A DNA stretch of 64,000 nucleotides from assembly GCF_030013595.1 (NCBI RefSeq), contig NZ_CP122768.1. The stretch is one strand, 5' to 3'. Position numbers and translations under genes: made by a program. Below the pieces are notes generated by a model. That model saw only the letters and a program-made list of their open reading frames with translations, was not told the DNA's origin and made no database searches. The DNA comes from Escherichia coli. GTDB lineage: Bacteria > Pseudomonadota > Gammaproteobacteria > Enterobacterales > Enterobacteriaceae. Every line of letters starts with the position of its first letter. Within the stretch, counting starts at the first letter, position 1. Below are positions 18,799 through 25,392 of the stretch, one piece after another.

Positions 18799-19164
<366 letters not shown>

Positions 19165-19180
19165 TTCTTGCGAGTTTCAG

Positions 19181-19208
19181 AAAAGGGGGCCTGAGTGGCC
19201 CCTTTTTT
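19181..19208 (+). terminator. rpsO terminator
   Basis: aaaagggggcc-tgagt-ggcccctttttt. Confidence 0.65.
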
Positions 19209-19211
19209 CAA

Positions 19212-19410
19212 GCTGACGGCAGCAATTCACTGGAAACTAATGTATTGTTGCTATGAATGATCTTCCGTTGCAGAGGTTCGCGCGGCTAATGAGAGGCTTT
19301 ACCCACATTGGGCTGGGTTAGGGTTGTCATTAGTCGCGAGGATGCGCAGAAGATCGGGTATTAACACCAGTGCCGTAAGGTACTGTCTAAGAAAGAGAAA
19401 GGATATTACA
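19212..19410 (+). promoter_or_regulatory. pnp promoter and 5' leader (autoregulatory, RNase III-processed region expected here)
   Basis: 199-nt untranslated region between the rpsO terminator and the pnp start; the function is from established knowledge of the rpsO-pnp locus, the processing site itself was not mapped. Confidence 0.4.
19215..19390 (-). ncRNA. sraG: Possible SraG/PsrO-type antisense sRNA opposite the pnp leader
   Basis: Location only; an sRNA divergent from pnp is described at this locus in K-12, but I could not verify its sequence or ends. Confidence 0.25.
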
Positions 19411-21546
19411 TTGCTTAATCCGATCGTTCGTAAATTCCAGTACGGCCAACACACCGTGACTCTGGAAACCGGCATGATGGCTCGTCAGGCTACTGCCGCT
19501 GTTATGGTTAGCATGGATGACACCGCGGTATTCGTTACCGTTGTTGGCCAGAAAAAAGCCAAACCAGGTCAGGACTTCTTCCCACTGACCGTTAACTATC
19601 AGGAGCGTACCTACGCTGCTGGTCGTATCCCGGGTAGCTTCTTCCGTCGTGAAGGCCGCCCAAGCGAAGGCGAAACCCTGATCGCGCGTCTGATTGACCG
19701 CCCGATTCGCCCGCTGTTCCCGGAAGGCTTCGTCAACGAAGTTCAGGTTATCGCCACCGTGGTTTCTGTTAACCCGCAGGTTAACCCGGATATCGTCGCG
19801 ATGATTGGTGCTTCCGCAGCACTGTCTCTGTCTGGTATTCCGTTCAATGGTCCGATTGGTGCTGCCCGCGTAGGTTACATCAATGACCAGTATGTACTGA
19901 ACCCGACTCAGGACGAGCTGAAAGAGAGCAAACTGGATCTGGTTGTTGCGGGTACTGAAGCCGCTGTACTGATGGTTGAATCTGAAGCTGAACTGCTGAG
20001 CGAAGACCAGATGCTGGGCGCAGTAGTGTTCGGTCATGAACAACAGCAGGTTGTTATTCAGAACATCAATGAACTGGTGAAAGAAGCCGGTAAACCGCGT
20101 TGGGACTGGCAGCCGGAGCCGGTAAACGAAGCGCTGAACGCGCGCGTTGCTGCACTGGCTGAAGCTCGTCTGAGCGATGCTTACCGCATCACCGACAAAC
20201 AAGACCGTTATGCGCAGGTTGATGTCATCAAATCTGAAACCATCGCGACGCTGCTTGCTGAAGATGAAACCCTGGACGAAAACGAACTGGGTGAAATTCT
20301 GCACGCTATCGAGAAAAACGTTGTTCGTAGCCGCGTACTGGCAGGCGAACCGCGTATCGACGGTCGTGAAAAAGATATGATTCGTGGTCTGGATGTGCGT
20401 ACTGGCGTGCTGCCGCGTACTCACGGTTCTGCGCTGTTCACCCGTGGTGAAACGCAGGCACTGGTTACTGCAACGCTGGGTACCGCTCGTGACGCACAGG
20501 TTCTTGATGAACTGATGGGCGAACGTACCGACACCTTCCTGTTCCACTACAACTTCCCTCCGTACTCCGTAGGCGAAACCGGCATGGTCGGTTCTCCGAA
20601 ACGTCGTGAAATTGGCCACGGTCGTCTGGCGAAGCGCGGCGTGCTGGCAGTCATGCCGGATATGGACAAATTCCCGTACACCGTACGTGTGGTGTCTGAA
20701 ATCACCGAATCCAACGGTTCCTCTTCTATGGCTTCCGTGTGCGGCGCGTCTCTGGCGCTGATGGACGCAGGTGTGCCAATCAAAGCTGCCGTTGCGGGTA
20801 TCGCAATGGGTCTGGTGAAAGAAGGCGACAACTACGTTGTACTGTCTGACATTTTGGGCGACGAAGATCACCTGGGCGATATGGACTTCAAAGTTGCAGG
20901 TTCCCGCGACGGTATCTCTGCACTGCAGATGGATATCAAAATTGAAGGTATCACCAAAGAGATCATGCAGGTTGCGCTGAACCAGGCTAAAGGTGCGCGT
21001 CTGCATATCCTGGGCGTAATGGAACAGGCGATCAACGCGCCGCGTGGCGATATCTCTGAGTTCGCACCGCGTATCCATACCATCAAGATCAACCCGGACA
21101 AGATCAAAGACGTTATCGGTAAAGGCGGTTCTGTTATCCGTGCTCTGACCGAAGAAACTGGCACCACCATCGAAATCGAAGATGACGGTACTGTGAAAAT
21201 CGCAGCGACCGACGGCGAGAAAGCGAAACATGCTATTCGTCGTATCGAAGAGATCACTGCAGAAATCGAAGTGGGCCGCGTCTACAATGGTAAAGTGACC
21301 CGTATCGTTGACTTTGGCGCATTTGTTGCCATCGGCGGCGGTAAAGAAGGTCTGGTACACATCTCTCAGATCGCTGACAAACGCGTTGAGAAAGTGACCG
21401 ATTACCTGCAGATGGGTCAGGAAGTACCGGTGAAAGTTCTGGAAGTTGATCGCCAGGGCCGTATCCGTCTGAGCATTAAAGAAGCGACTGAGCAGTCTCA
21501 ACCTGCTGCAGCACCGGAAGCTCCGGCTGCTGAACAGGGCGAGTAA
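19411..21546 (+). CDS. pnp: Polynucleotide phosphorylase
   Basis: Start placed at the TTG giving (M)[20 protein letters not shown] (711 aa); RNase PH, KH and S1 domains recognisable. Confidence 0.93.
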
Positions 21547-21557
21547 GGTTGCCATTT

Positions 21558-21584
21558 GCCCTCCGCTGCGGCGGGGGGCTTTTA
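21558..21584 (+). terminator. Hairpin after pnp
   Basis: ccctccgc-tgcg-gcggggggcttt; a weaker T tract follows. Confidence 0.4.
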
Positions 21585-21654
21585 ACCGGGCAGGACGCCT
21601 TGTTAGCAACCGGGAACAGGACGTTCATTCAACCGTGGTCTTCGGGAGTGGGAA

Positions 21655-22539
21655 ATGAAGCCTTTTTTGCGCTGGTGTTTCGTTGCGACAGCACTTACGC
21701 TTGCAGGATGCAGTAATACTTCCTTGCGTAAAAGTGAAGTCCTCGCGGTACCATTGCAACCGACTTTACAGCAGGAAGTGATTCTGGCACGTATGGAACA
21801 AATCCTTGCCAGTCGGGCTTTAACCGATGACGAACGCGCACAGCTTTTATATGAGCGCGGAGTGTTGTATGATAGTCTCGGTCTGAGGGCATTAGCGCGT
21901 AACGATTTTTCGCAAGCGCTGGCAATCCGACCGGATATGCCTGAAGTATTCAATTACTTAGGCATATATTTAACGCAGGCAGGCAATTTTGATGCTGCCT
22001 ATGAAGCGTTTGATTCTGTACTTGAGCTTGATCCAACTTACAACTACGCGCACTTGAATCGCGGGATCGCATTATATTACGGCGGTCGTGACAAGTTAGC
22101 GCAAGATGATCTGCTGGCGTTTTATCAAGACGATCCCAATGATCCTTTCCGTAGTCTGTGGCTTTATCTCGCCGAGCAGAAGCTCGATGAGAAGCAGGCT
22201 AAAGAAGTGTTGAAACAGCACTTCGAAAAATCGGATAAGGAACAGTGGGGATGGAACATTGTCGAGTTCTACCTGGGCAACATTAGCGAACAAACGTTAA
22301 TGGAAAGGCTCAAGGCGGACGCAACGGATAACACCTCGCTCGCTGAGCATCTCAGTGAAACCAACTTCTATTTAGGTAAGTACTACCTAAGTCTGGGGGA
22401 TTTGGACAGCGCCACGGCACTGTTCAAACTGGCGGTTGCCAACAACGTTCATAACTTTGTTGAGCACCGATACGCATTGTTGGAATTATCGCTCCTGGGC
22501 CAGGACCAAGATGACCTGGCAGAATCGGACCAGCAATAG
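21655..22539 (+). CDS. nlpI: Lipoprotein NlpI (TPR repeats)
   Basis: 294-aa ORF with lipobox LTLAGC and TPR-like repeats. Confidence 0.93.
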
Positions 22540-22645
22540 CTGACGTACACATCAGCCCGTAATCTTTTTTGATTGCCATCACCTTAACGGGTGAGGGCGT
22601 TGTTGTTCGTTAATACACCTACTTTGAGCCGGTTCACACTTTTCA

Positions 22646-22726
22646 ATGAAAATTGCTGATCAATTTCATGATGAGTTATGTAGACTGGCCGCCATTAATT
22701 TTGAGGCACACGTACTACATGGCTGA
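22646..22726 (+). CDS. yrbN: 26-codon small ORF in the deaD leader, overlapping the deaD start (YrbN-like)
   Basis: atg aaa att gct gat ... cat ggc tga = [26 protein letters not shown]; matches my recollection of the 26-aa K-12 small protein YrbN; below the ORF-track length cutoff. Confidence 0.45.
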
Positions 22727-24608
22727 ATTCGAAACCACTTTTGCAGATCTGGGCCTGAAGGCTCCTATCCTTGAAGCCCTTAACGATCTGGGTTACGAAA
22801 AACCATCTCCAATTCAGGCAGAGTGTATTCCACATCTGCTGAATGGCCGCGACGTCCTGGGTATGGCCCAGACGGGGAGCGGAAAAACTGCAGCATTCTC
22901 TTTACCTCTGCTGCAGAATCTTGATCCTGAGCTGAAAGCACCACAGATTCTGGTGTTGGCACCGACCCGCGAACTGGCGGTACAGGTTGCTGAGGCAATG
23001 ACGGATTTCTCTAAACACATGCGCGGCGTAAACGTGGTTGCCCTGTACGGCGGCCAGCGTTATGACGTGCAATTACGCGCCCTGCGTCAGGGGCCGCAGA
23101 TCGTTGTCGGTACTCCGGGCCGTCTGCTGGATCACCTGAAACGTGGCACTCTGGACCTTTCTAAACTGAGCGGTCTGGTTCTGGATGAAGCTGACGAAAT
23201 GCTGCGCATGGGCTTCATCGAAGACGTTGAAACTATTATGGCGCAGATCCCGGAAGGTCATCAGACCGCTCTGTTCTCTGCAACCATGCCGGAAGCGATT
23301 CGTCGCATAACCCGCCGCTTTATGAAAGAGCCGCAGGAAGTGCGCATTCAGTCCAGCGTGACTACCCGTCCTGACATCAGCCAGAGCTACTGGACCGTCT
23401 GGGGTATGCGTAAAAACGAAGCACTGGTACGTTTCCTGGAAGCGGAAGATTTTGATGCGGCGATTATCTTCGTTCGTACCAAAAACGCGACTCTGGAAGT
23501 GGCTGAAGCTCTTGAGCGTAACGGCTACAACAGCGCCGCGCTGAACGGTGACATGAACCAGGCGCTGCGTGAACAGACTCTGGAACGCCTGAAAGACGGT
23601 CGTCTGGACATCCTGATTGCGACCGACGTTGCGGCCCGTGGCCTGGACGTTGAGCGTATCAGCCTGGTGGTTAACTACGATATCCCGATGGATTCTGAGT
23701 CTTACGTTCACCGTATCGGTCGTACCGGTCGTGCGGGTCGTGCTGGCCGCGCGCTGCTGTTCGTTGAGAACCGCGAGCGTCGTCTGCTGCGCAACATTGA
23801 ACGTACTATGAAGCTGACTATTCCGGAAGTAGAACTGCCGAACGCAGAACTGCTGGGCAAACGCCGTCTGGAAAAATTCGCCGCTAAAGTACAGCAGCAG
23901 CTGGAAAGCAGCGATCTGGATCAATACCGCGCACTGCTGAGCAAAATTCAGCCGACGGCAGAAGGTGAAGAGCTGGATCTCGAAACTCTGGCCGCCGCAC
24001 TGCTGAAAATGGCACAGGGTGAACGTACTCTGATTGTTCCGCCAGATGCGCCGATGCGTCCGAAACGTGAATTCCGTGACCGTGATGACCGTGGTCCGCG
24101 CGATCGTAACGACCGTGGCCCGCGTGGTGACCGTGAAGATCGTCCGCGTCGTGAACGTCGTGATGTTGGCGATATGCAGCTGTACCGCATTGAAGTGGGC
24201 CGCGATGATGGTGTTGAAGTTCGTCATATCGTTGGCGCGATTGCTAACGAAGGTGACATCAGCAGCCGTTACATCGGTAACATCAAGCTGTTTGCTTCTC
24301 ACTCCACCATCGAACTGCCGAAAGGTATGCCGGGTGAAGTACTGCAACACTTTACGCGCACTCGCATTCTCAACAAGCCGATGAACATGCAGTTACTGGG
24401 CGATGCACAGCCGCATACTGGCGGTGAGCGTCGTGGCGGTGGTCGTGGTTTCAGTGGCGAACGTCGTGAAGGCGGTCGTAACTTCAGCGGTGAACGCCGT
24501 GAAGGTGGTCGTGGTGATGGTCGTCGTTTTAGCGGCGAACGTCGTGAAGGCCGCGCTCCGCGTCGTGATGACTCTACCGGTCGTCGTCGTTTCGGTGGTG
24601 ATGCGTAA
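22719..24608 (+). CDS. deaD: Cold-shock DEAD-box RNA helicase DeaD (CsdA)
   Basis: Start placed at [13 protein letters not shown] (629 aa); motifs [28 protein letters not shown] repeats in the C-terminal tail. Confidence 0.93.
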
Positions 24609-24651: not shown

Positions 24652-24681
24652 GCCCCGATTTTTACCATCGGGGCTTTTTTG
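24652..24681 (+). terminator. deaD terminator
   Basis: agccccgat-ttttacc-atcggggctttttt. Confidence 0.6.
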
Positions 24682-24685
24682 TGCA

Positions 24686-25392
24686 CAGAAAACCCCCAGC
24701 TAGGCTGGGGGTTCCGGAAAGCTTTCAGCTTTGAGCCAGTTATTAAAACCCCTTTTGATTTGTTAAAACACCTTGCGGTCTGGCAACTGCAAGTGTCAAA
24801 CAAGAAATCAAAAGGGGGTCCCAATGGGGGACGAAAAGAGCTTAGCGCACACCCGCTGGAACTGTAAATATCACATAGTTTTTGCGCCGAAATACCGAAG
24901 ACTGGCGTTTTACGGAGAGAAGCGTAGGGCGATAGGCAGTATTTTGAGAAAGCTGTGTGAGTGGAAAAGCGTACGGATTCTGGAAGCAGAGTGCTGCGCA
25001 GATCATATCCATATGCTTGTGGAAATCCCACCCAAAATGAGCGTATCCGGCTTTATGGGATATCTGAAAGGGAAAAGCAGTCTGATGCTTTACGAGCAGT
25101 TTGGGGATTTGAAATTCAAATACAGAAACAGGGAGTTCTGGTGCCGAGGGTACTATGTCGATACGGTGGGTAAGAACACGGCGAAGATACAGGACTACAT
25201 AAAGCACCAGCTTGAAGAGGATAAAATGGGGGAGCAGTTATCGATTCCATATCCGGGCAGCCCGTTTACGGGCCGTAAGTAACGAAGTTGAATGCAAATG
25301 TCAGATCGTATGCGCCTGTTAGGGCGCGGCTGGTAACAGAGCCTTACAGGCGCATTTGAAAAACCTCCGGCTATGCCGGAGGATATTTATTC
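24686..25392 (+). mobile_element. IS200 insertion sequence (IS200/IS605 family), about 0.7 kb, boundaries approximate
   Basis: Contains an intact 152-aa TnpA nearly identical to my recollection of Salmonella IS200 TnpA; a perfect hairpin ccccagc-tag-gctgggg (24694-24712) and a second stem ccccttttgatt...aatcaaaagggg that would sequester the tnpA RBS are the IS200 left-end hallmarks; no terminal inverted repeats, as expected for this family. Confidence 0.8.
24824..25282 (+). CDS. tnpA: IS200 transposase TnpA (HUH Y1 single-strand transposase)
   Basis: MGDEKSLAHTRWNCKYHIVFAPKYRR...HIHMLVEIPP...: HxH (HUH) motif and catalytic Tyr region; 152 aa. Confidence 0.9.
   Translation: MGDEKSLAHTRWNCKYHIVFAPKYRRLAFYGEKRRAIGSILRKLCEWKSVRILEAECCADHIHMLVEIPPKMSVSGFMGYLKGKSSLMLYEQFGDLKFKYRNREFWCRGYYVDTVGKNTAKIQDYIKHQLEEDKMGEQLSIPYPGSPFTGRK

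Follow-up and report, generated by a model that had tools for sequence, protein, structure and literature searches.

The long open frame on the minus strand opposite pnp is a passive shadow ORF left by codon bias and encodes no protein, a reading to which we assign a probability of about 0.96. The window, i.e., the whole stretch of 64,000 nucleotides that was analyzed, is a part of the Escherichia coli chromosome reaching from cgtA to tdcD, and its pnp region is 100% identical to that of strain HCP5S3_I2 (NZ_CM149870.1). The gene and the frame opposite to it are located as follows:

19411..21546, plus strand: pnp coding sequence, polynucleotide phosphorylase (PNPase), 711 aa, TTG start (RefSeq annotation; NCBIfam TIGR03591 equivalog, 1092 bits)

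19390..21624, minus strand: shadow frame, 745 codons long, which shares its triplet register with pnp and is judged non-coding

As to the mechanism, pnp is a strongly codon-biased and highly expressed gene from which translational selection has purged nearly all non-optimal codons, including TTA, CTA, and TCA; with these three codons missing, the complementary frame is left without stops. The chain from bias through the absence of the mirror codons to the open frame was shown directly from the sequence and a calibration set of genes. Full openness in this strain is roughly a one-in-five outcome for the bias and the leucine and serine content of pnp.

The stop-free minus-strand stretch is bounded, in its own reading direction, by TGA (21625-21627) and TAG (19387-19389), and the annotated pnp CDS lies within it over its entire length (100%). 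When the ORF is called mechanically from the first TTG, it spans 19387..21609 and has 740 aa, which recovers exactly the open frame described in the original prediction. The statement made there that the antisense and sense ORFs have the same length (2,223 nt each) is misleading, since the real pnp CDS is 2,136 nt long. The match is a coincidence: in the ORF track, the sense ORF was opened at an in-frame TTG (19324) that lies 87 nt upstream of the true pnp start at 19411; measured from stop to stop, the sense frame has 761 codons and the antisense frame 745. The antisense triplets coincide exactly with the pnp codons (identical triplet phase), which is the codon-aligned register expected of a shadow ORF. 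Because of this register, an antisense TAA, TAG, or TGA can arise only from a sense TTA or CTA (Leu) or TCA (Ser), the stop-mirror codons. Stops number 21 and 38 in the other two antisense frames of pnp and 29 and 47 in its two alternative sense frames.

None of the 83 leucine and serine codons of pnp (52 Leu, 31 Ser) is TTA, CTA, or TCA. CTG accounts for 47 of the 52 Leu codons, and serine is encoded by TCT, TCC, and AGC only. The Fop value of pnp, computed with Leu and Ser left aside, is 0.85. In total, 16 codons are missing from the gene (TGT, GGA, GGG, ATA, CTA, CTC, TTA, CCC, AGA, AGG, CGA, CGG, AGT, TCA, TCG, and ACA); all of them are non-optimal, and 13 of the 16 would give no antisense stop. 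Among the Leu and Ser codons, CTC, TCG, and AGT, which mirror no stop, are missing as completely as the three that do. Since the 13 non-mirror rare codons have been lost as well, the pattern indicates a general purge rather than a specific avoidance of antisense stops. Such a loss of rare codons is the signature of general translational selection; it is established that rare codons are avoided since their cognate tRNAs are scarce.

The calibration set comprised 159 annotated E. coli genes, namely 54 genes of the window together with those of the ribosomal-protein/str and rpoBC regions of K-12. The window genes from yhaC to tdcC were omitted, since small indels relative to the reference strain blocked coordinate-offset mapping. 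Across this set, the stop-mirror frequency dropped steadily as Fop rose: stop-mirror codons made up 22% of Leu and 15% of Ser codons at Fop below 0.5 and only 1.7% and 2.2%, respectively, in the 26 genes with Fop of 0.8 and above. The probability that pnp is fully open was 0.20 under the pooled rates of the high-bias class, 0.21 when pnp codons were resampled from all genes with Fop >= 0.8, 0.24 when the resampling was confined to long high-bias genes, and 0.20 by beta-binomial prediction. It was about 1e-5 under average codon usage (0 of 5000 resamplings) and about 1e-13 under base composition. High-bias genes predict 1.4-1.6 mirror codons in pnp, against 0 observed (P about 0.2), so that the bias of the gene (Fop 0.85; P 0.20-0.24) explains their absence. 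Codon bias had already been proposed as the likeliest cause in the original prediction, and the register, the 13 other missing codons, and the openness of about 21% of the high-bias resamplings all bear this out. The right null model for such frames is provided by genes of similar bias, through their codon usage in the same-triplet register.

When stop-mirror frequency was regressed on Fop with a logistic model, P was 0.03, but this fit was set aside as poorly calibrated at the high end. It over-predicts mirror codons in every high-bias long gene but infB: 8.7 were expected in rpoB vs. 1 observed, and for rpoC, rpoB, fusA, tufA, tufB, and infB together, about 26 were predicted vs. 11 observed. 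For this reason, the class-pooled rates, resampling, and the beta-binomial prediction were relied on instead.

These counts also bear on the idea that the avoidance of antisense stops was itself selected, through the harm of spurious translation, premature termination, or as a relic of an ancient RNY-type code, with no functional protein involved. Large published surveys do find long antiparallel ORFs in excess of what simple models predict (bioRxiv 10.1101/724807; PMC3454372). However, the non-mirror rare codons of pnp are depleted just as completely, the mirror count fits the high-bias expectation, and a stop-creating allele segregates within the species at about 30%, which together make selected stop avoidance extremely improbable.

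Long antisense frames were noted in the original prediction opposite ftsH, nusA, infB, deaD, and argG as well; all of them are present in the same-triplet register, with 560, 494, 590, 439, and 378 codons, respectively. In K-12, rpoB, rpoC, and fusA face antisense open frames of 1002, 846, and 539 codons, respectively, and the antisense frame is open over the full length of tufA, tufB, and many ribosomal protein genes. The register opposite rpoB, rpoC, fusA, and tufA/B is again the same-triplet one. Since these K-12 frames are longer than or comparable to that of pnp, the latter is not exceptional. The description of the pnp case as unusually complete is thus right insofar as no other long gene of the window is fully open, but longer runs exist in K-12 rpoB and rpoC. 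Nor is the completeness a property of the species; it is strain-specific, since K-12 pnp has an antisense stop.

The reading opposed to the shadow ORF is that of a genuine antisense overlapping protein of about 720-740 aa, translated from ATG 21555 or TTG 21609. It draws on the fully open 745-codon frame, on the presence of ATG 21555 with a Shine-Dalgarno-like GGAGGG near the 5' end of the frame, and on long antisense overlapping genes claimed elsewhere, such as olg1/olg2 of Pseudomonas aeruginosa (PMC8850804). Variation within E. coli speaks against it, including that at a single leucine codon:

20134..20136, plus strand: codon 242 of pnp (Leu), which reads CTG in this strain and CTA in K-12; CTA corresponds to TAG in the antisense frame

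The alleles of codon 242 were counted by megablast with 44-mers in which the SNP was placed so that only the matching allele seeds. CTA was found in 1,629 of 5,425 E. coli genomes (about 30%, including K-12 MG1655) and CTG in 3,795; O157:H7 is among the carriers of CTG. A full-length antisense protein that the cell needs cannot be reconciled with a frame-breaking allele of this frequency, which even the standard laboratory strain K-12 carries. Among nine pnp alleles, 132 codons are polymorphic; the variation is synonymous for PNPase at 128 of them and changes the enzyme at 4, whereas the antisense amino acid is altered at 119 of the 132. Because this common CTG/CTA polymorphism breaks the frame in K-12 at no cost to PNPase, pnp makes a clean worked example of a shadow ORF.

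The frame is not maintained across related species either. Eighty pnp loci were retrieved across Gammaproteobacteria and 77 were analyzed; the antisense frame is broken in 71 of the 77 orthologues, with 1-56 stops each (the overall range of stop-mirror counts is 0-56). It is fully open only in the orthologues of E. albertii, Citrobacter werkmanii, Pseudescherichia vulneris, and Escherichia sp. ESNIH1. Among the closest relatives at the level of genera, it is intact in 4 of 13, as it is in most E. coli. Taken by itself, an intact frame in close relatives would be expected under shared codon bias and may also be compatible with weak selection. Other Enterobacteriaceae have 1-2 antisense stops, and the number rises to 3-15 in Serratia, Yersinia, Pantoea, and Erwinia and to 20-56 in low-GC3 Vibrio, Haemophilus, Gilliamella, and insect symbionts. 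In two Aeromonas species of high GC3, the only antisense stop is at codon 7. Over all orthologues, the stop-mirror count is correlated with GC3 (Spearman -0.88), which argues that openness follows codon usage and not the descent of a gene. The integrity across strains and related species that would mark a genuine overlapping gene was therefore not observed.

Selection was compared using nine close relatives for dN/dS and identities and 11 for the control genes. The dN/dS of pnp was 0.018-0.076 in the sense frame and 2.1-4.0 in the antisense frame, and the antisense translation was 67-75% identical between genera vs. 93-97% for PNPase. The median antisense omega of pnp was 3.0, compared with 1.9-2.8 for flanking control genes; as it does not lie below the controls, the open frame is no more protected than frames filled with stops. 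The median dS of pnp (0.50) is close to those of infB (0.44) and deaD (0.51), two genes of similar bias. A sliding-window scan of 37 Enterobacterales sequences detected no local synonymous constraint in pnp, the most constrained 25-codon window having a permutation P of 0.54. The synonymous-constraint check proposed with the original prediction thus revealed no excess, either gene-wide or local, and supports its view of the frame as an artefact. Both the lack of purifying selection and the tracking of GC3 agree with a shadow ORF, and the purifying selection or excess constraint of a genuine overlapping gene was not found. The K-12 stop codon together with antisense dN/dS of 2-4 makes a conserved antisense protein untenable.

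Signals for antisense expression were sought around and within the frame. A consensus scan of 18800-22800 revealed no minus-strand promoter-like site. The first in-frame antisense start, TTG 21609, has no Shine-Dalgarno-like sequence. The only in-frame antisense ATG preceded by a Shine-Dalgarno-like motif is ATG 21555, where GGAGGG is found at suitable spacing with a duplex energy of -10 kcal/mol. This motif overlaps an element of the sense strand:

21558..21583, plus strand: GC-rich terminator-like hairpin with a T-run, just after the pnp stop; 9-bp stem whose complement supplies GGAGGG

GGAGGG is complementary to the hairpin's 5' arm, and in the predicted fold of an antisense RNA it would be base-paired in the mirror hairpin. 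The stem is kept across genera via compensatory changes, while Enterobacter, Pseudescherichia, Kluyvera, and Pluralibacter have lost ATG 21555. Consequently, ATG 21555 was rejected as a real initiation site, given that its motif is the complement of a co-varying terminator stem, that several genera lack the ATG, and that the minus strand upstream of it has no promoter-like site. No NCBIfam family matched the antisense translation, and all its Pfam matches were well below the curated cut-offs. K-12 curated annotation has no antisense feature within pnp.

Considering the segregating TAG, the frame broken in most other genera, the antisense dN/dS as high as or above that of the control genes, the lack of synonymous constraint, of a family match, and of a promoter-like site, the origin of the motif in the pnp terminator, and the absence of the frame from the PIRT-seq and EHEC overlapping-gene candidates searched, a genuine full-length protein is hardly credible. 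If coding, the frame would rank among the largest bacterial overlapping genes, and the evidence rules this out for practical purposes. Given the strong Shine-Dalgarno-like motif, translation from ATG 21555 would be physically possible on an antisense transcript, should there be one. It is conceivable, though very unlikely, that in the lineages with an intact frame (about 70% of genomes) read-through antisense transcripts are translated at a low level from this ATG into a non-conserved proto-protein of about 720 aa; if so, it would be raw material for de novo gene birth and not a functional gene.

A further possibility is that pnp harbors a small antisense ORF, or else an RNA that is structured or antisense, and that the long frame around it is incidental. 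Pervasive antisense transcription and small antisense ORFs have been reported in E. coli (bioRxiv 10.1101/2020.11.18.388249), and in-frame antisense ATGs other than 21555 occur at 21231, 21078, 21006, and 20037. Against this, the scan of the 37 Enterobacterales sequences revealed no region of reduced synonymous variation, and Rfam returned nothing inside pnp on either strand. Moreover, Shine-Dalgarno energies were weak (0.1 to -3.2 kcal/mol vs. a real-gene median of -5.8 kcal/mol) for the internal start candidates (ATG, GTG, or TTG) checked over the first 200 codons, a stretch that contains 21231 and 21078. A short element of this kind is accordingly regarded as highly improbable, and the shadow of codon bias remains the preferred reading.

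The shadow frame of pnp exemplifies a phenomenon that has been on record since the 1990s. Using a codon-usage model, Mir et al. (2012; PMC3454372) showed that very highly expressed E. coli genes give rise to long ORFs specifically in frame -1, with reference to Silke (1997) and Merino et al. (1994). As these frame -1 shadow ORFs are presented in PMC3454372, they share the register, the cause, and the organism with the pnp frame. Nothing essential differs between them; the pnp frame is notable only for spanning the whole 711-codon CDS in this strain. Moshensky and Alexeevski (2019; bioRxiv 10.1101/724807) obtained Ka/Ks values without negative selection on long antiparallel ORFs, including those opposite dnaK, which had once been annotated as 'NAD-specific glutamate dehydrogenase' (Pfam PF10712). 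Like the latter, the pnp frame exceeds 1,800 nt and lies opposite a conserved, highly expressed housekeeping gene, with constraint on the sense gene only. The dnaK antiparallel ORFs differ in that they recur in 282 genomes and were reported as 'slightly resisting' synonymous change, whereas the pnp frame shows no such resistance and has no curated family.

The pnp frame is also embedded antisense in an annotated gene, as are the EHEC candidates (PMC9927249) and P. aeruginosa olg1/olg2 (PMC8850804). The EHEC candidates and olg1/olg2 are reported to be backed by RNA-seq and ribosome profiling, and olg1/olg2 also by evidence of purifying selection. The pnp frame showed neither purifying selection, nor conservation, nor a promoter-like site when these were tested. 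No report of a pnp-antisense product was found in the literature searched. The gene pnp does not appear in the 18 supplements of the EHEC overlapping-gene study, and the PIRT-seq tables list for pnp only a sense-strand, out-of-frame candidate of 22 aa and no antisense one; the missing antisense entry in published supplements is weak negative evidence. The length of an antisense frame alone is no ground for overlapping-gene candidacy opposite highly expressed genes such as pnp, rpoB, rpoC, fusA, tufA/B, infB, or ftsH.

The only curated antisense-strand feature near pnp is a small RNA gene:

19181..19352, minus strand: SraG small RNA (Rfam RF00082, 162 bits), upstream of the pnp CDS

In the K-12 annotation, sraG begins 15 nt upstream of the pnp start codon and is directed away from pnp. 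It lies outside the shadow ORF, save for 7 nt at the 3' end of the frame according to the same annotation.

Synonymous divergence was unusually low in nlpI, with a median dS of 0.31 vs. 0.50 for pnp, the polynucleotide phosphorylase (PNPase) gene, and 1.34 for truB. Across 35 Enterobacterales, 56 of the 285 nlpI columns had zero synonymous diversity, the corresponding shares being 3% for pnp and 0% for truB. The constraint peaked at codons 1-20, 101-120, 141-160, and 221-260. This low divergence was seen despite weak codon bias (Fop, calculated on amino acids other than Leu and Ser, of 0.51; 11 TTA codons). The gene and the signal found within it were located as follows:

21655..22539, nlpI
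21846..21873 (+), promoter-like site within nlpI, from the consensus promoter scan

The latter was the sole promoter-like match of the region. Its -10 box, TATGAT (21868-21873), is directly upstream of position 21881, which lies 838 nt 5' of the deaD start. The deaD transcription start site (TSS) and -10 box have been mapped experimentally (PMC7430678), and both the -10 box of the window and position 21881 agree with them; most of nlpI therefore also serves as the autoregulatory 5' UTR of deaD. This double role plausibly explains the synonymous constraint on nlpI, which is a real dual-use sequence, in contrast to the stop-free antisense frame of pnp.

The following RNA elements and small ORF were located in and around pnp:

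18837..18951 (+), S15 leader (Rfam RF00114) upstream of rpsO
19181..19352 (-), SraG sRNA (Rfam RF00082, 162 bits), antisense to the pnp 5' leader
21230..21298 (+), 22-aa out-of-frame ORF inside pnp, candidate CDS110 of the PIRT-seq list
21558..21583 (+), hairpin just 3' of the pnp stop codon

As annotated in K-12, sraG begins 15 nt 5' of the start codon of pnp and hence shares its initial ~7 nt with the 3' end of the antisense frame; this overlap is incidental. Candidate CDS110 was reported as a sense-strand ORF in an E. coli PIRT-seq screen (PMC12350097, supplementary file 5), and its first 28 nt were found unchanged in the window. The structure of the hairpin is kept across Enterobacteriaceae through compensatory stem changes, as revealed by comparison with the orthologous pnp loci L005-L044 (for example, stem pairs GCCCTCCGC/GCGGAGGGC vs. 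AGCTCTCCATG/CATGGAGAGCT). A T-run of just 4 nt caused this hairpin to be overlooked by the consensus terminator scan.

The pnp allele of the window is a minority one: among the 5,425 complete genomes of E. coli, only 53 reach at least 99% identity to it over the CDS, and 100% identity was observed in only two records. The encoded PNPase differs from that of K-12 by three residues. Comparison with the otherwise near-identical NZ_CM149870.1 (strain HCP5S3_I2), the closest match in the collection, revealed an additional segment in the window:

24681..25385, insertion of ~705 bp between deaD and mtr
24773..25282, ORF of an IS200-type Y1 transposase (Pfam PF01797, E = 1e-36)

The insert is an IS200 copy, which sets the two genomes apart.
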